Source: Frankiales bacterium (GTDB lineage: Bacteria; Actinomycetota; Actinomycetes; Mycobacteriales; SCTD01). Taken from it: a DNA stretch of 64,000 bases. Under the pieces are notes generated by a model. It searched no databases. It was not told where the DNA came from and was given only the letters and a program-made list of their open reading frames with translations. Location: the NCBI GenBank assembly GCA_025465135.1, contig JAODNA010000084.1, positions 2,599 through 66,598 of the forward strand, written 5' to 3'. Below are positions 18,652 to 40,411 of this stretch, piece after piece; position 1 is the first letter of the stretch; each line of letters begins with the position of its first letter. Both the position numbers and the translations under genes were made by a program.

Positions 18652-20691
18652 TCAGGCCTGGCGCTGCAAGGGCGTGACCGCGGCGAGCGGCCGGCGGTAC
18701 TCCTCGAGCCACGACTCCACCTCATCCGCCGGCAGCGGTCGCGAGAGGTGGTAGCCCTGGATCACGTCGCAGCCCAGGGCCCTGAGCATGTTCCAGGTCT
18801 CGGCGTCCTCCACGCCCTCCGCCACCAGGCGCAGCCCGAGGTTGTGGCCGAGCTCGATCGTCGAGCGCACGATCACCGCGTCGTTGGAGTTCGTCGTCAT
18901 CGTGAACACGAAGGACTTGTCGATCTTGAGCTCGTTGGCCTCGAGGCGCTTGAGGTAGGAGAGCGAGGAGTAGCCGGTCCCGAAGTCGTCGATCGACAGC
19001 GAGACTCCGAGGTCGCGCAGCAGGCCCAGCACGGTCATCGTGCGCGTGGGATCGACCATGATCGTCGTCTCGGTCACCTCGAGCGTCAGTGACTCGGGCG
19101 GCACGCCCCATCGCCCGAGGAGCCCGGCGACCTGCCGCGGCAGCTCCAGATCTGTCAGGCAGCGCACGGAGATGTTGACCGCGACGCCGAGCGGCGTTCC
19201 GGCGTCCCGCAGCCTGCGTGCGAAGCACAGTGACTGGTCGAGCACCTCGAGCGTCAGCGCGCCGATCAGGCCGGTGTTCTCCGCGATGGGGATGAAGTCG
19301 TCCGGGTAGACGAGGCCGCGCGCCGGGTGCTGCCAGCGGACCAGGGCCTCCAGACCGACGAGGTCACCTGTCGCGGCGTCGCACTTGGGCTGGTAGTAGA
19401 CCCGCAGCTGCCCGTCGCTGACCCCCTCGCGGAGCTCGCCGAGCAGGGCGAGCTTCTCGACGCTGTGAAGGTCGCGCTCGGGCAGGTAGAACGCGTAGGT
19501 GCCGCGGTGCTCCTTCGCGGCGTAGAGCGCCACATCGGCGCGCTGCATCAGCGTCGTGACGTCCGAGCCGTGCTCCGGGGCGAGCGCGATGCCCACACTG
19601 GCCTGCACGTCCAGCCGCACTCCGTCGATGCTGAACGGCTGCATGAGGGCGGCGACGAGTCGCTGGGCGACGAGCTCCGCAGCGGCCCGCCCGTCGAGAT
19701 CACAGGCCAGTACGGCGAACTCGTCGCCACCCAGCCGGGCGACCGTGTCGCCTTCCCGCATGGCGGTCCGGAGCCGCGCGCCCACCTGCCGGAGCAGCTG
19801 GTCGCCGACGTAGTGGCCGAGGGTGTCGTTGATCTCCTTGAAGTGGTCCAGGTCGATCAGCAGCACCGCGGTGCCGACGGCGCTGCGCTCCGCCGCCTCG
19901 AGCGCGCGCCCGGTGCGGTCGCTGAGGTAGAGCCGGTTGGGAAGCCCCGTCAGTCCGTCGTGCAGGGCTTGGCGCTCGCGCTCGGCAGCGAGCTTCGCGC
20001 TGCGGTGGACGGCGGCGATCGGCAGCAGCATGAGGGGAAGCAGCAGCAGGGAGAAGCCGGTCGCGACCACGACGACCGGGGCGAAGGCGAGCAGGACGCC
20101 CGAGGTCGAGAGCTGGAAGCGCACGTCGTCGCGCAGGTGGGGCAGCACGGGCTTGTTCAGTGCCAGCGCGACGACGATGCCGGTCAGGCCGTTGTTGACG
20201 ATGAAGAACACCGCGCCCGCGGCGAGCGCGGGGACGACGTCGTGCACCTGCAGCGGCGTCGCGTCGGAGGCGAACGTCCGGTGGGTCAGCAGGCAGAACA
20301 CCATCCGCGTCACCGCGCCGGACAGGACCAGCTGGGCGTTGTTGAACAGGAGCCTCTGGAGGTTCTTGCGACGTCGGATGTCGTCGAGGCTGACGGCGGC
20401 GACCTGCGCGGCGAGCAGGACCCAGACCGGGCCGAGGATGGCCAGGGCGAGGATGAAGGTGCTGGCGATGGTGACCTCGTCGAGGTCGTCCTCACCGCGG
20501 GAGATCACGATGGGCTGGGACTCGCCGACCACCAGCAGGGCCGCGAGAACCAGCACCGTCAGGCTCGGGACCTCGACCCGTGCGGGCAGGTGCTGCACCA
20601 GCACGTCGGCGACCACGGCAGCGCCGGCGGCGATCACGGCGAACACGTAGGTGTTCAGCCGCGACGGCCGCAGTCGAGCCGCGAGCTGCAC
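18652..20691 (-). CDS. Membrane-anchored GGDEF-EAL protein (c-di-GMP synthase/phosphodiesterase)
   Basis: N-terminal multi-TM region, GGDEF (RLGGDEFAV) and EAL (EALVRW, DDFGTGYSSLSYL, KIDKSF). GTG 20691 is preceded by aggag with a 5-nt spacer. Confidence 0.9.
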   Translation of the reverse strand: MQLAARLRPSRLNTYVFAVIAAGAAVVADVLVQHLPARVEVPSLTVLVLAALLVVGESQPIVISRGEDDLDEVTIASTFILALAILGPVWVLLAAQVAAVSLDDIRRRKNLQRLLFNNAQLVLSGAVTRMVFCLLTHRTFASDATPLQVHDVVPALAAGAVFFIVNNGLTGIVVALALNKPVLPHLRDDVRFQLSTSGVLLAFAPVVVVATGFSLLLLPLMLLPIAAVHRSAKLAAERERQALHDGLTGLPNRLYLSDRTGRALEAAERSAVGTAVLLIDLDHFKEINDTLGHYVGDQLLRQVGARLRTAMREGDTVARLGGDEFAVLACDLDGRAAAELVAQRLVAALMQPFSIDGVRLDVQASVGIALAPEHGSDVTTLMQRADVALYAAKEHRGTYAFYLPERDLHSVEKLALLGELREGVSDGQLRVYYQPKCDAATGDLVGLEALVRWQHPARGLVYPDDFIPIAENTGLIGALTLEVLDQSLCFARRLRDAGTPLGVAVNISVRCLTDLELPRQVAGLLGRWGVPPESLTLEVTETTIMVDPTRTMTVLGLLRDLGVSLSIDDFGTGYSSLSYLKRLEANELKIDKSFVFTMTTNSNDAVIVRSTIELGHNLGLRLVAEGVEDAETWNMLRALGCDVIQGYHLSRPLPADEVESWLEEYRRPLAAVTPLQRQA

Positions 20692-20933
20692 GAGTGCTCC
20701 TGTCGGATCGGCGGGTTGCCCCGGGGTCCCGGCCGGGCGCACCCGGCAACCACGCGGGACAGGTCCCGCGCTAGGTATGTCGTCCGATACGCCCAGGTCT
20801 TGAGCCGCCGCGAGCCTGTTCCTCCCTCGTCCGCGCCGCACGCACCCCCCGAAAGGGGGACCGGAACTCACGGCTACACCTCCAGGCACGTCATGCCGAC
20901 ATATCCCTGTCGGACGAGCGGGAGGGGCGGCGG

Positions 20934-22505
20934 GTGCAGGCGCGGTATGGCCGGGTGCTGTCGTCCCCCGGTGTCGCGCGCACCGTGGTGCCGTACCTGG
21001 TCGGCCGGCTGCCGTCGAGCATGAACCTGCTGGCCCTGCTGCTGTTCATCCGCCACACGAGTGGCTCGTTCGTGACCGCCGGCGGCGTCAGCGCCGCCTT
21101 CGCCCTGGCCGTCGCCGTCTCGTCGCCGGTGCTCGGCCGGCTGGTCGACATGCGCGGGCAGACGGGTGTCCTCGTGGCCACCAGCATCGTGCACCCGCTC
21201 GCGCTCATCGGGGTGCTCGTCGCCGCCTCGCAGTCGGCCGGCGCCCCGGTGGTGCTGGCTGCGGCCGCCCTGGCCGGCGCGTCGCTGCCGCCGATCTCGG
21301 CGTGCATGCGAGCGCTCTGGCCCAGTCTGCTGCGGGACGCGGAGCAGCGCGAGACCGCTTTCGGTCTCGAGGCGGTCGTCGTCGAGATCTGCGAGCTGGG
21401 CGGCCCCTTGCTCGTCGGTGGGCTCACCGCGGTCGTGTCGCCGGGTGCCGCGGTGCTGGTCAGTGCGGTCCTGACCGGCGCCGGAGCGCTCCTGTTCGCC
21501 CTGGCACCCGCCTCCCGCGACGCGGTCCGCGGGGCGTGGCAGACCCGCCGATGGCGGGGTCCGCTGGAGGAACGGGGCGTCCGCTGGCTGCTCGCGATCA
21601 TCGCGTTCTCCACCGCCGGTCTGGCCGCCTTCGAGGTCGCCATCGCCGGCTTCGCGACCGGGCACGGCGGGGCGGCGTCGACGGGGACCCTGCTCGCGCT
21701 GTGGTTCGGCGGGAGCCTGGCCGGTGGCTGGTGGTACGGCGCGCGCCGATGGGCGACGCCCCTGCCCTGGCAGCTCGTCGGTCTCCTCCTGGCGGTCGCC
21801 GTGGGCGCGCTGCTGCCGTTGCTCGCGACCGGCACCTGGACCATGGCCGCCCTCCTCCTCGTGTCCGGTGTCGCGATCGCCCCGGCCATCGCCGTACAGC
21901 TCGCCGTGATGTCCGAGGTCGCACCGGAGCGCAGCCGCACGGAGGCCTTCACCTGGGCCAGCACCGCCAACTTCGTCGGCATCGCCGGTGGCTCGGCCCT
22001 GGCCGGCTGGTCGGTCGAGCTGGCCGGGGTGCGCGCTGGGCTGGTCGCGTCGGCCGGTCTCGCTGCCGTCACCGCGCTGCTGTCCGTCGCCGGGCGGCAC
22101 GGCCTCGGCCTGCCGCGGCTGGCGCACGACGCTGCGGTGGAAGCCGCCGAGGACGCCTACGACCTGGCCGTGTTCGAGGACCTCGCCCAGGAGCGTGACG
22201 ATGCGGTCGCAGCGCTCGCGCGGGCGGCCGAGCGGAACGCCGAGCTGCTGGACCAGCTCACCGCTCTCCGCGGGCAGCTGCAGGACGGGAGCCACCAGCC
22301 GCCGACCGGCCGGGCGGCGTCGGCCGCCGCCGAGATCGCCAGGACCGGGTTGGCTCGCCTCGACGCGAGCCTGGCGGACCTCTACCTGCTCGAGCAGCGA
22401 CGGGCGGCCGTTCTCGAGGACATCGAGCAGCTGCGCGCCGAGCTGCTCTCGTGGGGCCTGCCGGAGAACGTGACAGCCCTGCCGCGGCAGTCGCACGGGG
22501 CGTGA
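20934..22505 (+). CDS. MFS transporter with a ~120-aa C-terminal coiled-coil-like cytoplasmic extension
   Basis: About 400 aa of 12-TM MFS-like sequence. The tail follows: ...DLAVFEDLAQERDDAVAALARAAERNAELLDQLTALRGQLQ...LEQRRAAVLEDIEQLRAELL. GTG start after gggagg. Confidence 0.75.
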   Translation: MQARYGRVLSSPGVARTVVPYLVGRLPSSMNLLALLLFIRHTSGSFVTAGGVSAAFALAVAVSSPVLGRLVDMRGQTGVLVATSIVHPLALIGVLVAASQSAGAPVVLAAAALAGASLPPISACMRALWPSLLRDAEQRETAFGLEAVVVEICELGGPLLVGGLTAVVSPGAAVLVSAVLTGAGALLFALAPASRDAVRGAWQTRRWRGPLEERGVRWLLAIIAFSTAGLAAFEVAIAGFATGHGGAASTGTLLALWFGGSLAGGWWYGARRWATPLPWQLVGLLLAVAVGALLPLLATGTWTMAALLLVSGVAIAPAIAVQLAVMSEVAPERSRTEAFTWASTANFVGIAGGSALAGWSVELAGVRAGLVASAGLAAVTALLSVAGRHGLGLPRLAHDAAVEAAEDAYDLAVFEDLAQERDDAVAALARAAERNAELLDQLTALRGQLQDGSHQPPTGRAASAAAEIARTGLARLDASLADLYLLEQRRAAVLEDIEQLRAELLSWGLPENVTALPRQSHGA

Positions 22506-27773: not shown

Positions 27774-27863
27774 GGTGGCGTGTCCGAGCGGCCGAAGGAG
27801 CACGCCTCGAAAGCGTGTGACGGTGCAAGCCGTCCGTGGGTTCAAATCCCACCGCCACCGCCA
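27774..27863 (+). tRNA. tRNA-Ser (anticodon CGA), CCA encoded
   Basis: Acceptor ggtggcg/cgccacc, anticodon stem cacgc/gcgtg with loop ctCGAaa, long variable arm, T-loop ggttcaaatcc. Confidence 0.92.
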
Positions 27864-28050: not shown

Positions 28051-29607
28051 ATGACCTCTTTGAGCCCTGAGCTGGGCGTCCTCGGCGAGCCCGCCGAAGG
28101 CGCTGTGCGACGGTCCACCGGGACCCGCCTGGCCGTCGCCCTCGTCGCGTTCGTGACGGCGTGGATGGTCGGGGGCGTCCGGGCCACACCGGCGTTCGCC
28201 GATGACGGTGGGGACCGGGGCGACAGCACGTCAGCCGGCGAGCACCGTGACGCACAGAGCCGCGACGGTGGCAGCGGCGACGCACAGAGCCGCGACCGTG
28301 GCAGCCGTGACGCACAGAGCCGCGACTCCTCGGGGGGCGCGGGTTCGTGCTCCTGCCCGAGCGAGACGTCGAAGGGCACCACGCAGACGAAGGCCGACTC
28401 TGCGTCGTCCGACCACGCGAAGTCCTCGACCAAGGGTGACAGCGCGAAGAGCTCGACCAAGGGTGAGAGCGCGAAGTCCTCGGCCAAGGGAGAGAGCGCG
28501 AAGTCCTCGGCCAAGGGAGAGAGCGCGAAGTCCTCGGCCAAGGGTGAGAGCGCGAAGTCCTCGACCAAGGGTGAGAGCGCGAAGAGCTCGGCCAAGGGTG
28601 AGAGCGCGAAGTCCTCGGCCAAGCCGACATCGGGTTCGTCCGAGCAGGCGGCCACCTCGGACAGCCACACCACGACGACCCAGTCCGCATCGAGCGGCGA
28701 CACCCAGCGCAAGCCGAGTCGGCGCCCTGCCCACAACAGTGACGCCTGCCTGCCGACGCCGGTGCCGTACGGGCCGAAGAAGCTCGACGACAGCCATGAC
28801 AGCGAGGGCAAGGCCGGCGACGCCGGCAAGCAGGACGACAGCAAGGACGTGAGTGGGTCGGCCAGCGCCGGTGCGGCGTCGGGTGCTGCCGGCACGTCGG
28901 GCAAGGGCACCGGTGGCAAGGCCAGCGGCGGTAGCGCGAACGGCACGACGACCGGGACGACGACGGGTGCCGGTTCTGCCGGTGCGGCGTCGGGTGCTGC
29001 CGGCACGTCGGGCAAGGGCACCGGTGGCAAGGCCAGCGGCGGTAGCGCGAACGGCACGACCGGTACCTCAACGAGTGCGGGTAGCGCGGGCAACACGGTG
29101 CCGAGTGCCGGTAGCGCGGGCAACACGGTGCCGAGTGCCGGTTCCGCGGGCAACACGGTGCCGAGCGCCGGTAGCGCGGGCAACACGGTGCCGAGTGCCG
29201 GCAGTGCGGCTGTTCCCGGTACGACGACTGTTCCCGGTACGACGACGGGCACGGGTACCACGACGGGCACGGGCACGACGACGGGCACGGGCACGACGAC
29301 CGGCACCGCATCGGGCTCCGGCACGACCCCGGTCACCGCGCCGGTCACTGCGCCGGGTACGACGACGACCGGCACGACGGCGGGTACGGCGACGGTCGGC
29401 TCGACCACCGGCGGCGCGGCGGCACCGGCCACGGCCGGCACGGCGTCCGTACCGCTCGGCGGCACGGCGGTTGCCCCGGCGGCCCGTCCGGCAGCGCTCC
29501 CGTTCACGGGTGGCGGCGAGCTGCCGGAGGAGATCGCCCTCGGCGGCATCCTGATCGCGCTGGGAGCTGCCGTGCGCCGCATCGGGCGCCCGCGCACGAC
29601 CGCGTAG
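28051..29607 (+). CDS. LPXTG-anchored low-complexity repeat surface protein
   Basis: N-terminal TM/signal segment. Repeats KGESAKSSA x~8, GSAGNTVPSA x4 and a duplicated ~38-aa Gly/Ser/Thr block. C-terminus is LPFTGGG + hydrophobic segment + RRIGRPR. Confidence 0.85.
   Translation: MTSLSPELGVLGEPAEGAVRRSTGTRLAVALVAFVTAWMVGGVRATPAFADDGGDRGDSTSAGEHRDAQSRDGGSGDAQSRDRGSRDAQSRDSSGGAGSCSCPSETSKGTTQTKADSASSDHAKSSTKGDSAKSSTKGESAKSSAKGESAKSSAKGESAKSSAKGESAKSSTKGESAKSSAKGESAKSSAKPTSGSSEQAATSDSHTTTTQSASSGDTQRKPSRRPAHNSDACLPTPVPYGPKKLDDSHDSEGKAGDAGKQDDSKDVSGSASAGAASGAAGTSGKGTGGKASGGSANGTTTGTTTGAGSAGAASGAAGTSGKGTGGKASGGSANGTTGTSTSAGSAGNTVPSAGSAGNTVPSAGSAGNTVPSAGSAGNTVPSAGSAAVPGTTTVPGTTTGTGTTTGTGTTTGTGTTTGTASGSGTTPVTAPVTAPGTTTTGTTAGTATVGSTTGGAAAPATAGTASVPLGGTAVAPAARPAALPFTGGGELPEEIALGGILIALGAAVRRIGRPRTTA
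28415..28623 (+). repeat. Intragenic 27-bp tandem repeat (~7.5 copies)
   Basis: Unit aagggtgagagcgcgaagtcctcggcc with minor variants. It is in frame and encodes KGESAKSSA. Confidence 0.9.
29079..29198 (+). repeat. Intragenic 30-bp tandem repeat (4 copies)
   Basis: Unit ggtagcgcgggcaacacggtgccgagtgcc, encoding GSAGNTVPSA. Confidence 0.9.
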
Positions 29608-31018: not shown

Positions 31019-31211
31019 GCGCACTCCTCCGTCGGCGGCACCGAGCATGCCACGCGGCCCGCCGCGCAGACCTCCCAAGAATTACGCCATTCGGCCCACT
31101 ACTTTCGGGCCCCCTGTTGGTTACTCTCTGTGTCGATCGACGTCGCTCAGGGTGACTCTTCGGGGCTGGCCGGGGCGACGACGGTGATCGGCGGGCACTC
31201 GCCCGCCGACA

Positions 31212-31506
31212 GAAGGAAGCACTGATCCGGACGGTCCACACCGACGACGCGCAGGCGTCGCACGGAGAGACACGGTCGCCTAGGCCGCCCGGGGAGCTAG
31301 TGGCGAGACCGACCTGCCCAGTGAACAGGACGTCCTCGGACGCCCCGCTCATCGGACGCAGAGGCCTTGATCCGCGTGGTCCTCACCGACGCCCCCGGGC
31401 GCACGGAGGAACACGGTCGCCAGACCGCGCGGGGAGCCAGTGGCGAGACCGGCTCGTTCGGTGGCGGTGCGTCGTGGACGCCCTCTACTTGGACGGGAGT
31501 CCCCGC
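31212..31506 (+). promoter_or_regulatory. Conserved structured 5' leader, copy 1 (two tandem ~105-145-nt units), candidate cis-regulatory RNA
   Basis: Near-identical to 32799-33106. Invariant core cggggagcYagtggcgagaccg at 31290-31311 and 31430-31451. Stem ggtcgcc/ggcga(g)acc. Variable hairpins carry compensatory changes. Confidence 0.6.
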
Positions 31507-32478
31507 ATGCGCACCAACGACACGACGTGCACGTCCAGCTCTACCCGCCGCGCGCCGGTCGCTGCGACGCTCGCGGCGGTGCTGCTCAGCCTTCCTTTGA
31601 CGCTCGCGCTCAGCGGCACCGCCTGGGCCTGCACCTCCTCCGACGGGGGTAGCAGCCAGGGCAGCAAGGGTGGTGGCGACAGCAAGGGCGGCGACCACGA
31701 GGGCAGCAAGGGTGGTGGCGACAGCAAGGGCGGCAGCACCGGTGGCGGCGACCACGAGGGCAGCAAGGGTGGAGGCGACAGCAAGGGCGGCAGCACCGGT
31801 GGCGGCGACCACGAGGGCAACAAGGGTGGTGGCGACAGCAAGGGCGGCAGCACCGGTGGCGGCGACCACGAGGGCAGCACCGGTGGCGGCGACCACGAGG
31901 GCAGCACCGGTGGTGGCGACAGCAAGGGCGGCAGCACTGGTGGCGGCGACCACGAGGGCAGCAGCACGGGCGGCGACGACCACCACGGCGGTAGCACCGG
32001 TGGCGGCGCGACCGGCACCACGGGCGACGACGACCACCACGGCAGCAGCACCGGTGGTAACAGCACGACCGGTGGCACGACGGGCACCACGGGCGGCGGC
32101 CACAGCGGTGGCAGCACCGGCGGGACCAGCACGACCGGCACGAGCATCGGCGGGGGCACGAGTGGTGGGGGCAGCATCACGCCGCCGGTCGTGCACCCGG
32201 TCGTGCACCCGGTCGTGCACCCGGTCGTGCGCCCGGTCGTGCGCCCCGTCACGCGGCCGGTCACGCACCCCGTGACGCGGCCGGTCATCGGGGGTACCGC
32301 GGGAGCGCCGGCCTCGGGTCCGGTCGTCACGGTCCGCGCGGCGACGGCGCGGGCTGCGCAGCCGTCCGCCCTGCCGTTCACCGGCGCGGACCCGTCCATC
32401 CCGCTCGGCATCTCGCTCGTCCTGCTCGGCAGTGGCGTGATCCTCACCGGTGCGGCGCGCCGGCGCGAGCACGCCTGA
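31507..32478 (+). CDS. LPXTG-anchored His/Asp/Gly-rich repeat surface protein
   Basis: Signal peptide MRTNDTT...LALSGTAWA. GGGDSKGGSTGGGDHEGSK repeats, DDHH motifs and a PVVH/PVVR/PVTR 4-aa repeat. C-terminus LPFTGAD + hydrophobic segment + RRREHA. ATG follows ggacgggag. Confidence 0.85.
   Translation: MRTNDTTCTSSSTRRAPVAATLAAVLLSLPLTLALSGTAWACTSSDGGSSQGSKGGGDSKGGDHEGSKGGGDSKGGSTGGGDHEGSKGGGDSKGGSTGGGDHEGNKGGGDSKGGSTGGGDHEGSTGGGDHEGSTGGGDSKGGSTGGGDHEGSSTGGDDHHGGSTGGGATGTTGDDDHHGSSTGGNSTTGGTTGTTGGGHSGGSTGGTSTTGTSIGGGTSGGGSITPPVVHPVVHPVVHPVVRPVVRPVTRPVTHPVTRPVIGGTAGAPASGPVVTVRAATARAAQPSALPFTGADPSIPLGISLVLLGSGVILTGAARRREHA
31666..31965 (+). repeat. Intragenic degenerate tandem repeats (~57-60 bp unit)
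   Basis: Repeated ggtggtggcgacagcaagggcggcagcaccggtggcggcgaccacgagggcagcaag. Confidence 0.8.
32185..32290 (+). repeat. Intragenic 12-bp tandem repeat (~9 copies)
   Basis: ccggtcgtgcac/ccggtcgtgcgc/ccggtcacgc.. encoding (PVVH)3(PVVR)2(PVTR/H)... Confidence 0.85.
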
Positions 32479-32527: not shown

Positions 32528-32798
32528 CATGCCCCGGCTGTCCAGGCGGGTCACGCGCGAACCCGTTCCACTACAGCGCGTGATGTGCGCCCGGGTCCGG
32601 GCCGCGTGCCCCGCCTGCCCCGGGTGGGGAGTTTTTGCCCGGATGTCGCCTTTTGCGGCAGCAAGTTACGCCATTCGGCCCACTACTTCCGGGCCACTCT
32701 GTAGTTACTCTGTGTGTCTGCTGCAGCGCAGAAGGTGAATCTTTTTGACTCACCCCACGTGATGAAGCGGCAACTGCGGGTATACGCCCGTCGTTGAG

Positions 32799-33106
32799 CA
32801 AGGAAGCGTTGATCCGGATGGTCCACACCGGTTCGCCCCCTTCGGGGACGTGAGCACGGAGAGACTCGGTCGCCTAGACCGTTCGGGGAGCTAGTGGCGA
32901 GACCGACCTGCCCCAGTGAGCAGGGCGTCCTTCGGGCGTCCAGTCACCGGATGCAGAGGCTGTGATCCGCACGGTCCTCACCGACGCCGAACCTGGCGCA
33001 CGGAGGAAGACGGTCGCCAAGACCGCGCGGGGAGCTAGTGGCGAGACCGGCTCGTCCGGTAGCTGGACATCTTCCGATGCCCTCTACCTCGGACGGGAGT
33101 CCCCGC
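32799..33106 (+). promoter_or_regulatory. Conserved structured 5' leader, copy 2, candidate cis-regulatory RNA
   Basis: Aligns with 31212-31506. Cores at 32884-32905 and 33028-33049. Same ggacgggagtccccgc immediately before the start codon. Confidence 0.6.
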
Positions 33107-34714
33107 GTGCGCACCACCACCAGCACTTCAGGCATCACCGGCAAGGCCCGCCGCGCGCCCGTCGTCACGACGCTCGCGGCCCTCTGCCTCGCCCTTCCCA
33201 TGAGCGGCATCTTCGGTGGCACGGCTTTCGCCACTAACGACAAGGCCGCCTCGGATCACGGCGCGTCCTCCGCGCCCGGCCAGCAGAAGAAGGCCGACCC
33301 GGGCAGCAGCAGCGCCACCACCGCGAGCACCGACTCGAGCACGAGCAGCGCCAGCAGCTCCGCGGACAGCACGCCCGGCAACAGCGACCACAGCCAGGGC
33401 AACGCCTCCACGAGCGGCAGCTACAACCAGCCGCAGCCCTACTCGAACGCGGACAGCAACAACACCGGCGCCAACGACACGTCGGCCTCCAACCCCTACC
33501 GCTCGACCCGCGACGGGTCGCCGTCGATGAACGGCAACGGCGGTGGCAACGCGGGCGGCAAGCCATGCGCCGGCTGTGTGGGCAAGGCCGACAACAAGAA
33601 CCCGAAGGGTCAGGCGCCCGGCGGCTCGGACCACAACAACGGCTACGAGTGCGATGGCAACAACGGCATCGGAAAGGGCAACCCGGCCCACACCGGCTGC
33701 ACCACCGGCGGGACGACACCGCCTCCGCCGAGCTGTGTCCCGACGGCGGCCAACCACCACTGCGACACCGACACGCCTCCGCCGGGCTGTGTCCCGACGG
33801 CGGCCAACCACCACTGCGACACCGACAAGGCCTGCCCGAACGGCAGCCCGATGCCGGCCAGCGGCGACTGCGGGGGTGGTGACCACGGCAACAAGAACGA
33901 CAAGGTCACCATCTGCCACGCGACCGGCTCCGCGAGCAACCCCTTCGTCGTCATCACGCCGAACAAGAACGGCGTCGTGCACGGCCACGCCAAGCACGGT
34001 GACGACATCATCCCGCCGTTCGACTACAACGACCACGGCGTGACGAAGCACTTCCCCGGCCTGAACTGGACGGCTGCCAACCAGGCCGCGTTCCACAACG
34101 GCTGCAGCGTGCCGGCAGCCCCGAAGTGCCCGAACGGCTCGGCGATGCCGGCCTCAGGGAACATCGCAGACTGCACCCCGCCGGTTGTCTGCCCGGCCGG
34201 TTCGACGATGGTCAACGGCGTCTGCACCCCGCCGGTCGTGTGCCCGGCCGGTTCGACGATGGTCAACGGCGTCTGCACCCCGCCGGTCGTGTGCCCGTCC
34301 GGTTCGACGATGGTCAACGGCGTCTGCACCCCGCCGGTCGTCTGCCCTGAGGGAACGCAGATGGCACCTGGGGCGACCAGCTGCACGCCGCCGCTGGTGT
34401 GCCCCAACGGTGCGATGGTCGGACCCATCGTGCCCGGCACGGCTCGTCCGGGCTGCCCGATCGAGGGGGGCACCGGCAACGGCGCGCAGACCCCGCCGGT
34501 GTCCGCACCCGTCCCGACCGTCATCGGTCAGGGCACCACGCCGCAGGCCGTGCAGGGCGGCACGCCCACGCCGGCCGTCGTGTCGGCCCGGCCGACGGCG
34601 CTGCCCTTCACCGGCAGCAACGCCGGCCTGCTCGCCGAGGGCGCTGCGCTGATGCTCCTCATCGGCACCGGCCTCGTCGTGGCCGCTCGCCGGAAGGTGG
34701 CTCTCGCCGCCTAG
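33107..34714 (+). CDS. LPXTG-anchored Cys-rich repeat surface protein
   Basis: GTG 33107 aligned with ATG 31507. Signal peptide ...IFGGTAFA, Ser/Asn-rich region, CVPTAANHHCDTD x2, ICHATGSASNPFVVITP motif, CTPPVVCPAGSTMVNGV x3-4. C-terminus LPFTGSN + hydrophobic segment + RRK. Confidence 0.85.
   Translation: MRTTTSTSGITGKARRAPVVTTLAALCLALPMSGIFGGTAFATNDKAASDHGASSAPGQQKKADPGSSSATTASTDSSTSSASSSADSTPGNSDHSQGNASTSGSYNQPQPYSNADSNNTGANDTSASNPYRSTRDGSPSMNGNGGGNAGGKPCAGCVGKADNKNPKGQAPGGSDHNNGYECDGNNGIGKGNPAHTGCTTGGTTPPPPSCVPTAANHHCDTDTPPPGCVPTAANHHCDTDKACPNGSPMPASGDCGGGDHGNKNDKVTICHATGSASNPFVVITPNKNGVVHGHAKHGDDIIPPFDYNDHGVTKHFPGLNWTAANQAAFHNGCSVPAAPKCPNGSAMPASGNIADCTPPVVCPAGSTMVNGVCTPPVVCPAGSTMVNGVCTPPVVCPSGSTMVNGVCTPPVVCPEGTQMAPGATSCTPPLVCPNGAMVGPIVPGTARPGCPIEGGTGNGAQTPPVSAPVPTVIGQGTTPQAVQGGTPTPAVVSARPTALPFTGSNAGLLAEGAALMLLIGTGLVVAARRKVALAA
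34171..34380 (+). repeat. Intragenic 51-bp tandem repeat (3 full copies plus diverged copies)
   Basis: ctgcaccccgccggtcgtgtgcccggccggttcgacgatggtcaacggcgt. Period 51 (34171, 34222, 34273). Confidence 0.85.
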
Positions 34715-34766: not shown

Positions 34767-34774
34767 CGTTCCGG

Positions 34775-34860
34775 CGGAGGATGCGAGATTCGAACTCGCG
34801 AGGGGTTGCCCCCAACACGCTTTCCAAGCGTGCGCCATAGGCCAACTAGGCGAATCCTCC
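34775..34860 (-). tRNA. tRNA-Ser (anticodon GGA), CCA not encoded
   Basis: The reverse complement gives acceptor ggaggat/atcctcc, anticodon loop ttGGAaa, a long variable arm and T-loop gagttcgaatctc. Confidence 0.92.
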
Positions 34861-34954
34861 TGGGTCCCCCCAGGGGGGCGGACGCGGTTGATCCTAGCCG
34901 CGCCGTACGCGGTGGAAAGCGTCGACCGCCGGTGCCCGCCGTACGTCTAGAGTG

Positions 34955-35056
34955 ACGTCAGACCCCTCGTGCGGCGCCCATCTCGCTGAACTCCCCCAGG
35001 GCCGGAAGGCAGCAAGGGCAGGCGGGCTCTGGGCGGGTGTGCGAGGGGTCCTTACT
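34955..35056 (+). ncRNA. ffs: Signal recognition particle RNA (small bacterial type, 4.5S-like); ends approximate
   Basis: Conserved domain IV sequence cagggccggaaggcagcaagggcagg. Closing helix gacccctcg...cgaggggtc. Canonical position between tRNA-Ser and dnaX. Confidence 0.85.
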
Positions 35057-35074
35057 TCCGCAGGAGGACCGCAC

Positions 35075-36991
35075 GTGAGCCTGGCGCTGTATCGCAAGTA
35101 CCGGCCCGGGACGTTCGCGGAGCTCAAGGGCCAGGAGCACGTCACCGGCCCCCTGCAGCAGGCACTGCGCAACGGCCGCATCCACCACGCTTACCTGTTC
35201 AGCGGGCCGCGTGGCTGCGGCAAGACCTCCAGCGCGCGCATCCTCGCGCGCAGCCTGAACTGCGAGAAGGGCCCGACGCCCGACCCCTGCGGCGTCTGCG
35301 ACTCGTGCGTCGCGCTCGCGCCCAACGGCCCGGGCAGCCTCGACGTCGTCGAGATCGACGCGGCTTCGCACGGCGGTGTCGACGACGCCCGCGACCTGAG
35401 GGACCGCGCCTTCTACTCGCCGGTCGCGAGCCGCTTCAAGGTCTACATCATCGACGAGGCCCACATGGTCTCCCGGGAGGGCTTCAACGCCCTGTTGAAA
35501 CTGGTCGAGGAGCCACCGGAGTTCCTGCGGTTCGTGTTCGCGACGACGGAGCCCGAGAAGGTGCTCGCGACGATCCGCTCGCGGACGCACCACGACCCCT
35601 TCCGGCTGATGCCCCGCCGGGAGCTGACCGAGCTGCTGCAGGACGTCGTCGACAAGGAGGGCATCGCCGTCGACAGGACGGTGCTGCCACTCGTCGTGCG
35701 CGCGGCCGCCGGCTCTGCCCGTGACGGCCTGTCGATCCTCGACCAGGTGCTGGCATCGGCCGGGGCCGACGGCGTGACGCGGGAGGCAGCGGCCGGTCTG
35801 CTCGGTGTCACTCCTGACACCCTGCTCGACGACGTGGTCGACGCGTTCGCTGCCCGTGACAGCGCTGCGGTCTTCGGGGCCGTCGACCTGGTGATGGAGC
35901 GCGGTCACGACCCACGGCGCTTCGCGCAGGACGTCTTGGAGCGGCTACGCGACCTCGTCGTTCTGGACGCCGTGCCCGACGCCGGCGACAAGGGACTGCT
36001 CGACTGCCCCGCCGACCAGCTCGAGCGGATGGGCCGGCAGGCCACGATGCTCGGCACCGCCGGCCTCTCGCGTGCGGCCGACCTGTTCCACGAGGGCCTG
36101 ACCGAGATGCGCGGTACGACGGCGCCGCGCCTGCTGCTCGAGCTCGTGTGCGCCCGCGTGCTCCTCCCAGCTGCTGCGCACGACGCCGGCTCGGTGCTCA
36201 CGCGCATCGAGCGGCTGGAGCGCCGCCTCGACATCGCGACCCCGAGCTCGGGAGCGGTGCCGGCAGCGCACCCCCCTTCCGTCGCGTCAGAGGCCCCACG
36301 CGGCAGCGGTGCACCCGTCGACGGACGCACCGACCCGCAACCGCCGTCGGAGTCGCAGTCGAAGCCGCAGTCGCAGTCGAAGCCGCAGCCGCAGTCGCCG
36401 CCGGCTCCGGTGACGTGGCCGAGCACGGCGCCGCTGGGCGGGGACGACGCCGCTGCACCGGAGACCGCACCGACGGACGCATCCGCGATCGCCACCGCTG
36501 CGGCTGCACCGGAGGACGCGCCGACGGCTGGATTGGACGCGGCGGCGCTGCGCCGGTCCTGGGACGCGGTGCTCGATGCGGTGAAGACGCGCAAGCGCAC
36601 GACCCACGCACGTCTGCTCGACGCGCAGGTGCTGCACGTGCGCGGTCGCCTGCTCACCATGGGCTTCACGACTCCCACCCTGGCCAAGCAGTTCAAGGAC
36701 AGCGTCAACATCGAGGTGCTCCGCGAGGCGCTGGCCGAGGCGATCGGGGCGGACCTCGACGTCGACTGCGTGGTGGCAGGAGCGGCCGCGCCGCCGCCGA
36801 GCACGCCGACGTCGCAGGCGGCCGGTCCACCGCCCACGGCGCACGAGGGCTTCGCTCCGGGCGACGAGGCTGTTGCGGAAGACCCGGACGCACCGCCTGC
36901 GCCGGACCGTGTCCTGAACGGGGAGGACGCCGCCTTGCGTCTCATCGAGAGCGAGCTCGGTGGCAAGGTCGTCGGAACCGTCGGCGAGTAG
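35075..36991 (+). CDS. dnaX: DNA polymerase III subunits gamma/tau
   Basis: VSLALYRKYRPGTFAELKGQEHV, GPRGCGKTS, Zn module CGVCDSC, IIDEAHM. GTG 35075 after caggagg. The upstream part of the track ORF covers the SRP RNA. Confidence 0.95.
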   Translation: MSLALYRKYRPGTFAELKGQEHVTGPLQQALRNGRIHHAYLFSGPRGCGKTSSARILARSLNCEKGPTPDPCGVCDSCVALAPNGPGSLDVVEIDAASHGGVDDARDLRDRAFYSPVASRFKVYIIDEAHMVSREGFNALLKLVEEPPEFLRFVFATTEPEKVLATIRSRTHHDPFRLMPRRELTELLQDVVDKEGIAVDRTVLPLVVRAAAGSARDGLSILDQVLASAGADGVTREAAAGLLGVTPDTLLDDVVDAFAARDSAAVFGAVDLVMERGHDPRRFAQDVLERLRDLVVLDAVPDAGDKGLLDCPADQLERMGRQATMLGTAGLSRAADLFHEGLTEMRGTTAPRLLLELVCARVLLPAAAHDAGSVLTRIERLERRLDIATPSSGAVPAAHPPSVASEAPRGSGAPVDGRTDPQPPSESQSKPQSQSKPQPQSPPAPVTWPSTAPLGGDDAAAPETAPTDASAIATAAAAPEDAPTAGLDAAALRRSWDAVLDAVKTRKRTTHARLLDAQVLHVRGRLLTMGFTTPTLAKQFKDSVNIEVLREALAEAIGADLDVDCVVAGAAAPPPSTPTSQAAGPPPTAHEGFAPGDEAVAEDPDAPPAPDRVLNGEDAALRLIESELGGKVVGTVGE

Positions 36992-39811: not shown

Positions 39812-40411
39812 ATGTATGAAGGCGCCGTACAGGACCTGATCGACGAGCTCGGCCGATTGCCCGGCGTGGGTCCGAAGAGCGCTCAGCGGATCGCCTTCCA
39901 CCTGCTCGCTGCCGACCCGGTCGACGTGCGCCGGCTGGTGTCCGCCCTGACCGAGGTGAAGGAGAAGGTGCGGTTCTGCCGGATCTGCTGCAACGTCAGC
40001 GAGCAGGACGAGTGCCGCGTCTGCCGTGACCCGCGACGCGACCTCACGGTGATCTGCGTCGTCGAGGAGCCCAAGGATGTCGTCGCGATCGAGAAGACGC
40101 GCGAGTTCCGTGGTCGCTACCACGTGCTGGGCGGTGCCATCTCACCGATCGAGGGCGTCGGTCCGGACGACCTTCGGGTGCGCGAGCTGATGGTGCGACT
40201 GCAGGACGGATCGGTGACCGAGCTGATCCTCGCCACCGACCCCAACCTCGAGGGGGAGGCGACGGCGACCTACCTCGCCCGCCTGGTCAAGCCGATGGGG
40301 CTGCGCGTGACGCGGCTGGCAAGCGGGCTGCCCGTGGGGGGCGACCTGGAGTACGCCGACGAGGTGACACTCGGCCGTGCGTTCGAGGGCAGGAGACAGG
40401 TCGATGTCTGA
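39812..40411 (+). CDS. recR: Recombination protein RecR
   Basis: [17 protein letters not shown], Zn finger [16 protein letters not shown], Toprim [14 protein letters not shown]. Confidence 0.95.

Follow-up and report, generated by a model that had tools for sequence, protein, structure and literature searches.

Why should two neighbouring genes for secreted, sortase-anchored proteins each be preceded by a leader that carries the same structured unit twice? The question is raised by a 64-kb stretch of DNA from a Frankiales bacterium (assembly GCA_025465135.1, contig JAODNA010000084.1, positions 2,599 to 66,598 of the forward strand), hereafter the window, in which leaders 1 and 2 stand upstream of genes 1 and 2, respectively, and each leader contains a first unit (A) and a second unit (B). 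A preliminary description of this sequence had proposed tandem aptamer-like domains, with A1 and A2 as names for the first unit of each leader and B1 and B2 for the second. The four units are aptamers of a catalogued riboswitch family, c-di-GMP-II-GAG, and not a new RNA. We consider it likely that these tandem GAG-aptamer leaders work as an ON switch that releases the Shine–Dalgarno (SD) sequence, the ligand probably being cyclic di-GMP (c-di-GMP) or a close relative.

Four members of the c-di-GMP-II-GAG family

An Rfam 15 scan of the whole window matched the four units, all on the + strand, to RF03169, the model of c-di-GMP-II-GAG, which is an actinobacterial variant of the class-II c-di-GMP aptamer. 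Every match spans model positions 1–86 of 86 and scores above the gathering score of 40 bits (Table 1), in agreement with the proposal of tandem riboswitch domains. RF03169, which belongs to clan CL00127, wins the clan competition at all four sites, where 12 lower-scoring matches of the same clan were suppressed; the canonical model RF01786 is not the best clan model at any of them. A scan of the region against Rfam at a permissive threshold returned nothing further except tRNAs and the signal recognition particle (SRP) RNA.

The aptamer is built of helix P1, a 3-bp P2, an asymmetric internal loop with NNN-GAU opposite GGA, and an 8-bp P3, whose loop holds a variable hairpin between CACCGA and GCACGGAG. 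Judged from the kink-turn consensus, the NNN-GAU/GGA loop carries the putative sequence signature of a kink-turn, an element that is part of the canonical class-II c-di-GMP fold. The strand CGGUCGCC is complementary in all four units to GGCGAGACCG, located just 5′ of the P1 3′ strand, over 8 bp with a 2-nt bulge. The preliminary description had overlooked P1, P2, P3 and the GA motif that resembles a kink-turn, all of which the units contain; its strings UGAUCCG-NN-YGG and CCG-YN-CGGGGAG turn out to be the two strands of the kink-turn and P3. Its pairing of GGUCGCC with GGCGAGACC is real as a complementarity but contains a bulge of 2 nt, not the 1 nt drawn, and can be arranged either as CGGUC/GACCG plus GCC/GGC, with GA bulged, or as UCGCC/GGCGA plus GG/CC. 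We take this pairing to be the pseudoknot of the class-II c-di-GMP aptamer, which joins the loop of P3 to the segment that lies 5′ of P1's 3′ strand.

The exact 22-nt core CGGGGAGCYAGTGGCGAGACCG occurs four times in the 64 kb, always on the + strand (31290, 31430, 32884 and 33028), and these remain the only sites when up to three mismatches are allowed (chance expectation 0.02), so that the core is indeed common to the four units and absent from the rest of the window. The two consensus strings proposed for the units match all of them letter by letter and the variable-hairpin sequences had been quoted correctly; the TGATCCG unit starts at 31223, 31368 and 32810 stand as given, but the fourth is at 32963 and not at 32953, a slip of 10 nt. 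Leaders 1 and 2 are paralogous over ~450 nt, from the upstream box to the start codon, with 84% identity. Because A resembles A, and B resembles B, more closely than A resembles B inside one leader, the duplication of the unit is, on these likenesses, older than that of the leader.

After unit A, a CCUG...CAGG hairpin had been drawn. It can be formed in both window leaders but is not conserved in the closest relatives, being broken in L120 (UUGG) and L098 (CUGG), where CUGC pairs farther downstream instead, and it was rejected as a conserved fold. The further small hairpin placed after unit A is real and covaries among leaders.

Homologues and covariation

GTDB species representatives were scanned with GGAGCNAGTGGCGAGACC, which gave 120 loci of 8 kb; in 94 of them, a covariance model made from the window's four units detected 104 additional copies. 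The copies are almost all from Actinomycetota, namely Frankiales/Frankiaceae, Mycobacteriales (in the GTDB sense), Modestobacter, Nitriliruptoraceae and Acidimicrobiia. Pairing statistics were taken from the alignment of 108 sequences. P1, P2 and P3 together are paired at 89.1%, compared with 63.8% in shuffled alignments and 32–45% in slid registers; 491 cells are changed on both sides, and two-sided change is seen in 20 of the 21 pairs. The stems are thus maintained in homologues, the opposite of the outcome that the preliminary description had named as refuting. The strand CGGUCGCC is found in 102 of the 108 sequences, and both pseudoknot strands are almost invariant, the 3′ strand being fixed by the search pattern.

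The architecture of the window units, with a hairpin between C[AG]CCG[AG] and NACGGAG, 5′ of the pseudoknot strand, is shared by 45 of the 108 sequences. In these, the first four stem positions of the insertion hairpin are 91–98% paired, whereas slid registers are mostly 18–58% paired, with one slid position at 82%. The stems take 26 distinct 4-nt sequences, which confirms that this hairpin keeps its structure while its sequence changes.

The family comprises two subtypes: Frankiales-like copies have the variable hairpin 5′ of CGGUCGCC, between CACCGA and GCACGGAG, and the copies from Nitriliruptoraceae, Acidimicrobiia and other distant groups have it 3′ of CGGUCGCC. Other arrangements were also observed. 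A Nitriliruptoraceae chromosome (L014, 3158–7210) contains three aptamer copies ~2 kb apart, each before its own secreted-protein gene, and L106 (4224–4657) contains a divergent pair on opposite strands, ~210 nt apart. A metagenome search with the pattern GGCGAGACCN{120,150}GGCGAGACC, which was too unspecific, gave 120 loci, none of them with an aptamer.

Expression platform

The units stand in sense orientation in the 5′ leaders, unit B lying 56–58 nt before the start codons (ATG 31507 and GTG 33107). In 72 of 85 cases across the family, the aptamer (its pseudoknot) is followed by the start codon at a distance of 20–76 nt. Between 30950 and 33200 no terminator-like site was found except the one after gene 1, and both leaders are terminator-free; because this sole terminator ends gene 1, the two genes form separate transcription units.

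The 3′ strand of P1 in unit B, P1(B), reads CUCGUCC-GGUAG and can pair with CUACC..GGACGGG in the SD region, a complementarity that is present in all A+B leaders of other genomes and contigs. The duplex between this strand and the SD window has a computed energy of −13.2 kcal/mol in leader 1 and −15.4 kcal/mol in leader 2. The corresponding sequestor helix belongs to the minimum free energy (MFE) fold in four of seven leaders (W2, which is leader 2 of the window, L120, L098 and L074), and an unbiased RNAalifold run on ten tandem leaders also gives it, at −22.5 kcal/mol, together with a pairing between GAC in the pseudoknot strand and a GUC that follows the SD. The helix is 95.6% paired, against 39–48% in slid registers. 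Over the whole family, pairing of the P1 3′ strand is stronger with the pre-start window of its own locus (−10.98 kcal/mol) than with those of other loci (−9.6 kcal/mol), a difference reached by none of 2000 permutations.

Because the P1(B) 3′ strand is complementary to the SD region, the leaders are most likely translational ON switches; the complementarity is observed, and from it we infer the switching. In the ligand-free state, the P1(B) 3′ strand and the last bases of the pseudoknot strand would pair with CUACC..GGACGGGAGUC, hiding the SD, and a long bridge hairpin would join the 3′ strand of P1 of unit A, P1(A), to the P1(B) 5′ strand. Ligand bound at A would stabilise P1(A) and open the base of the bridge. 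Ligand bound at B would stabilise P1(B) and withdraw the anti-SD strand, leaving the SD free, and the LPFTG surface protein would then be translated (ON). The ligand would most likely be c-di-GMP or another signalling nucleotide close to it.

Other pairings in the leaders were considered and discarded. The linker 5′ strand GCGUCC was tried as an anti-P1(B) element (with GGAUGC or GGACGC), a pairing that is not kept in L075 and L074; the SD region CGGACGG was tried as a mimic of the P3 5′ strand, but P3 varies while the SD region is constant.

A conserved doublet and a candidate bridge between its aptamers

Same-strand doublets are present in five GTDB loci (L050, L074, L075, L098 and L120). 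Gene 2 has 554 homologues, several of them named as LPXTG cell-wall-anchored proteins, and ten loci encoding sampled homologues were inspected: eight have A+B upstream, one (L250) has a single A-type aptamer with the same SD platform as the doublet leaders, and one ends at a contig edge, which makes eight doublets in the nine loci with enough upstream DNA. Each A+B pair of the window stands in a leader of ~400 nt, and the arrangement recurs before homologous genes in about ten other actinobacterial genomes or metagenome contigs.

The order of elements in the leader is upstream boxes, P0 hairpin, unit A (AAGGAAGC...GACCUGCCCCAGUGA), a covarying linker hairpin, unit B (GCAGAGGC...GGCUCGUCCGGUAG), hairpin H, CCCUCUACCUNGGACGGGAGUCCCCGC and the start codon. 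Unit B has an 11-bp P1 with a 4-bp extension that covaries among leaders (CCGC/GCGG, CCAG/CUGG, CUGG/CCGG and GCCG/CGGC). The P0 position forms a hairpin in other leaders too, with two-sided changes such as GUGGGU/ACCCGC in L098. The conserved boxes, A(A/G)TTACGCCATTCGGCCCACTAC and GTTACTCT(C/G)TGTGTC, are located ~70–125 nt 5′ of unit A in both leaders. The upstream box has only two copies in the window (31080 and 32664; chance expectation 0), and the boxes are recognisable in L120, L050, L075 and L074. Since a sigma-70 promoter scan of the leader region detected no promoter, the boxes may be a candidate alternative-sigma promoter or an operator.

The bridge is composed of CUGC/GCAG, CC/GG and GUGA/UCAC pairs around the linker hairpin, and cannot coexist with either P1(A) or P1(B). 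In single-sequence folds it forms in 11 of 11 distinct leaders (−19 to −28 kcal/mol). It is also the RNAalifold consensus, being 93% paired versus 33–54% in slid registers, and shows compensatory changes in L050 (GUGC/GCAC) and L075 (GUGU/ACGC with CUUGC/GCAAG). In leader 2, bridge and sequestor helix occur together in the MFE fold of 32900–33120. No terminator, SD or open reading frame (ORF) was found between A and B, and only the P1(B) 3′ strand pairs with the SD. Since unit A thus lacks any such element that would belong to it alone, one expression platform probably serves both aptamers, an arrangement that would steepen the response to ligand. Because the bridge excludes P1(A) and P1(B) alike, binding at A should favour folding of B. 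This putative coupling, read from the pairing pattern, is the only possibly new point. The complete scheme, a cooperative, digital ON switch with two aptamers and one platform, in which A licenses B and the SD is then released, and whose ligand is maybe not c-di-GMP, is put forward tentatively and may well not hold.

Evidence against the ON switch and alternative explanations

Several points weigh against the SD-releasing ON switch and its bridge. The pseudoknot is supported by complementarity without covariation, because both of its strands are invariant. The computed accessibility of the SD shows no clear contrast between a blocked and a free P1 3′ strand, and unconstrained MFE folds of the 390-nt leaders gave none either, which is why comparative evidence was relied on; a second anti-SD, CCCUC, competes with the first. 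P1(A) has only 3–5 bp in the window. The bridge is lost in L246, its support comes from 11 leaders of ~6 lineages with few compensatory events, and much of its complementarity is to be expected simply because A and B are duplicates. Finally, the binding-site nucleotides of the variant reportedly differ from those of canonical class II, which makes the identity of the ligand a further point against it.

The last point leads to a serious, though less probable, explanation: that the aptamers are genuine but respond to another ligand, either a different cyclic dinucleotide or a linear product such as pGpG. Rfam separates RF03169 from the canonical model, and it is RF03169 that wins the clan competition here. 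Weinberg et al., in PNAS in 2017, are said to have set the GAG variant apart by its altered binding-site nucleotides and to have left its ligand open, the abstract reportedly suggesting a different signalling molecule for such variants. We know of no experiment that has established which ligand the GAG variant binds; no ligand test for it was found in the literature searched, and the variant is unmentioned in the 224-RNA paper. Nevertheless, secreted, sortase-anchored surface proteins are a classical gene context for c-di-GMP (PMC6366702, PMC9481103), and a GGDEF-EAL enzyme is encoded 10 kb away. Another explanation, possible but rather doubtful, separates the aptamers: A and B would be independent riboswitches in series (pseudo-cooperative), A having a cryptic platform, such as Rho-dependent termination or a U-less terminator hairpin, and the bridge being a by-product of duplication. 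The known c-di-GMP-II doublets and triplets are listed with multiple platforms (PMC9481103), A-type aptamers work alone elsewhere (L250, L115 and L082), hairpin H, which follows B, has its homologue in the linker hairpin that follows A, and the CUGC/GCAG and CC/GG pairs of the bridge follow from the paralogy of A and B. The GUGA/UCAC pairs, however, lie outside both P1 helices and yet are kept with compensatory changes (L050 and L075), and the lack of any terminator-like site between A and B, or of an SD or ORF after A, also disagrees with a separate platform.

The short P1(A) in the window and the score of unit A in leader 1, the lowest of the four at 50 bits, could also mean that A is a decaying, non-functional copy and that only B acts. 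This is improbable, as A keeps all conserved core nucleotides and the pairing of P3 and the insertion hairpin in about ten independent leaders, and the A-type is the commoner singlet form elsewhere. It is more improbable still, to the point of being barely credible, that the core acts at the DNA level, as an operator (the alternative raised in the preliminary description) or as some other repeat: an invariant 22-nt core is what a protein-binding site would show, but P1, P2, P3 and the insertion hairpin covary as helices, the element is always in sense orientation in 5′ leaders, 20–76 nt before a start codon, and it matches a curated RNA family.

Regulated genes and genomic context

Genes 1 and 2 (Table 1) code for proteins with a signal peptide, repeats of low complexity and, at the C-terminal end, LPFTG with a hydrophobic and basic tail behind it. 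The gene 1 product matches no family in Pfam or NCBIfam; that of gene 2 matches Pfam Gram_pos_anchor below the cutoff (16.6 bits) and otherwise no Pfam or NCBIfam family, and is part of a large family of actinobacterial LPXTG proteins. The GTG start of gene 2 agrees with the public gene call P0001 (535 amino acids, 100% identity). Nearly all proteins encoded downstream of family aptamers have a signal peptide, and 27 of the 67 complete ones end in LPxTG. A Cys motif of gene 2, NGYECDGNNGIGKGNPAHTGC (33500–33710), which belongs to a conserved domain with no Pfam match, recurs in proteins encoded downstream of other family aptamers (L011 and L051).

A third gene for a repeat-rich, secreted, LPFTG-anchored protein (28051–29607, +) directly follows a tRNA-Ser (27774–27863) and has neither a riboswitch nor a copy of the conserved upstream box. 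Tandem DNA repeats that keep the reading frame, with periods of 12–84 nt, are present in all three LPFTG genes (28245–29405, 31662–32287 and 33714–34347). They include a 57-nt unit in five copies, CCGGTCGTGCAC (encoding PVVH) in 5.5 copies and a 51-nt Cys-repeat in 3.5 copies; such repeats are typical of variable surface proteins. Antisense ORFs in gene 2 (33643–34527, −) have a G+C content at third codon positions (GC3) of 0.90–0.92, as high as real genes. They are most likely an artefact of low-complexity, GC-rich coding on the + strand, because that strand itself has a GC3 of 0.92 with a signal peptide and an LPFTG anchor.

About 10 kb upstream of the riboswitch genes, a MASE9-GGDEF-EAL ORF (18655–21045, −) encodes a membrane sensor that has both a diguanylate cyclase and a phosphodiesterase domain; enzymes of c-di-GMP turnover are therefore present in the window. 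Gene 2 is followed by a classical cluster (34773–36991 and 39812–40408) of tRNA-Ser (34773–34860, −), SRP RNA (34958–35056), dnaX (probable start 35075) and recR (39812–40408). Synteny with L120 and L098 (Frankiaceae and Actinomycetota metagenome-assembled genomes), at ~85% identity over ffs-dnaX, marks the host of the window as a Frankia-like actinomycete. The gene order is shared by L120, L098, L244, L245, L248 and L249, in which a riboswitch-controlled LPXTG gene is found directly upstream of ffs-dnaX.

Table 1. Positions of the elements of leaders 1 and 2 and of the genes that they precede, in window coordinates
Feature	Position	Strand	Details
Upstream boxes, leader 1	31080–31134	+	AATTACGCCATTCGGCCCACTAC 31080–31102; GTTACTCTCTGTGTC 31120–31134
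P0 hairpin, leader 1	31191–31206	+	GCGGGC-ACUC-GCCCGC; directly 5′ of unit A; in MFE fold
Unit A aptamer, leader 1	31206–31323	+	RF03169, 50.0 bits
P1, unit A	31214–31216 / 31313–31315	+	AGG/CCU; weak
P2 5′ strand, unit A	31218–31220	+	
Kink-turn-like NNN-GAU, unit A	31221–31226	+	
P3, unit A	31227–31234 / 31285–31292	+	
Insertion hairpin, unit A	31239–31267	+	
Pseudoknot strands, unit A	31273–31280, 31302–31311	+	
Bridge hairpin, leader 1	31314–31361	+	MFE of full leader, single-sequence folds, RNAalifold consensus; CUGCCC and GUGA of unit A with UCAU, GG and GCAG of unit B P1 5′ strand
Linker hairpin, leader 1	31328–31345	+	GGACGUC-CUCG-GACGCCC; inside bridge
Unit B aptamer, leader 1	31350–31463	+	RF03169, 62.7 bits
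P1, unit B	31350–31361 / 31453–31463		11 bp
P1 extension, unit B	31345–31348 / 31464–31467		CCGC/GCGG, 4 bp
P3, unit B	31372–31379 / 31425–31432		
Insertion hairpin, unit B	31384–31408		
Pseudoknot strands, unit B	31414–31421, 31442–31451		
Expression platform, leader 1	31448–31509	+	Duplex energy, consensus sequestor helix, pair counts
Anti-SD, leader 1	31452–31467		P1(B) 3′ strand
Hairpin H, leader 1	31466–31483		
Second anti-SD, leader 1	31481–31488		CCCUCUAC, pyrimidine
SD region, leader 1	31491–31502		GGACGGGAGUCC; GGGAG 31495–31499
Start codon, gene 1	31507–31509		ATG
Gene 1	31507–32478	+	323 amino acids, secreted, repeat-rich, C-terminal LPFTG anchor; GC3 0.89
Intrinsic terminator after gene 1	32609–32636	+	9-bp stem (hairpin 32609–32629), then T-run
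Upstream boxes, leader 2	32664–32718	+	32664–32686 and 32704–32718
P0 hairpin, leader 2	32776–32791	+	GCGGGU-AUAC-GCCCGU; 5′ of unit A
Unit A aptamer, leader 2	32793–32917	+	RF03169, 53.5 bits
P1, unit A	32798–32803 / 32907–32911		GCA(A)GG/CCUGC
P2 5′ strand, unit A	32805–32807		
P3, unit A	32814–32821 / 32879–32886		
Insertion hairpin, unit A	32826–32861		
Pseudoknot strands, unit A	32867–32874, 32896–32905		
Bridge hairpin, leader 2	32908–32956	+	CUGC/GCAG, CC/GG, GUGA/UCAC around linker hairpin
Linker hairpin, leader 2	32923–32941	+	GGGCGUCC-UUC-GGGCGUCC; inside bridge
Unit B aptamer, leader 2	32946–33060	+	RF03169, 53.7 bits
P1, unit B	32946–32956 / 33051–33060		
P3, unit B	32967–32974 / 33023–33030		
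Insertion hairpin, unit B	32979–33005		
Pseudoknot strands, unit B	33011–33018, 33040–33049		
Expression platform, leader 2	33046–33109	+	Duplex energy, MFE and consensus sequestor helix
Anti-SD, leader 2	33050–33065		P1(B) 3′ strand
Hairpin H, leader 2	33065–33082		
Second anti-SD, leader 2	33080–33087		CCCUCUAC
SD region, leader 2	33091–33102		GGGAG 33095–33099
Start codon, gene 2	33107–33109		GTG
Gene 2	33107–34714	+	535 amino acids, secreted, Cys-repeat, C-terminal LPFTG anchor

Comparison with known systems

In itself, the result is one of annotation, adding four members to a catalogued riboswitch variant. The increments are the conserved A+B doublet with its single SD platform, the P3-loop insertion subtype, the candidate bridge helix and the tight link of the aptamer to LPXTG proteins of Frankia-like actinomycetes, in which there has been little study of c-di-GMP riboswitches. 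The leaders would connect surface proteins anchored by sortase with a nucleotide second messenger and, being compact, well conserved and read out by SD release, would make good constructs for finding the GAG ligand.

The units share with RF03169 the P1/P2/P3 layout, over the full model, and the strings GA..CGGUCGCC..GGGGAGC.AGUGGCGAGACCG. They differ from it in the structured 22–36-nt insertion of the P3 loop (CACCGA-hairpin-GCACGGAG), which the model leaves unaligned, in standing in doublets, and in the P1 of the A units, which is far shorter than that of the model. With the canonical RF01786 aptamers Cdi-2-1 and Cdi-2-3 of C. difficile they have in common the fold type, with its putative pseudoknot and kink-turn, the LPXTG surface-protein genes and the predicted ON polarity, the class-II c-di-GMP riboswitches of that species being ON switches for sortase-dependent surface proteins (PMC6366702). 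Those switches act on transcription termination, whereas the window leaders are terminator-free and the P1 3′ strand would mask the SD. Their hosts are Firmicutes and those of the GAG units Actinomycetota; the binding site of the variant differs, and its ligand is putative.

Tandem c-di-GMP-II arrays have been surveyed by Sherlock et al. (2022, PMC9481103), who listed 59 doublets and 9 triplets, mostly from Paraclostridium, before surface-anchor genes. As in the window, aptamers of one class stand in series before genes for surface-anchored proteins, but the arrays are listed as pseudo-cooperative, with several expression platforms (PMC9481103), whereas unit A here has none of its own and the window leaders do not carry a platform after every aptamer. 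The survey used Rfam 12.2 (PMC9481103), and because this release is older than the GAG model, the actinobacterial doublets were probably missed. Another parallel in layout is the tandem glycine riboswitch, in which two homologous aptamers likewise precede one expression platform. Its aptamers communicate through tertiary contacts, whereas the only candidate link in the window leaders is the alternative bridge helix. If the coupling through the bridge is true, it would let tandem aptamers achieve cooperativity simply by means of secondary structure, unlike the tertiary contacts of the glycine riboswitch.

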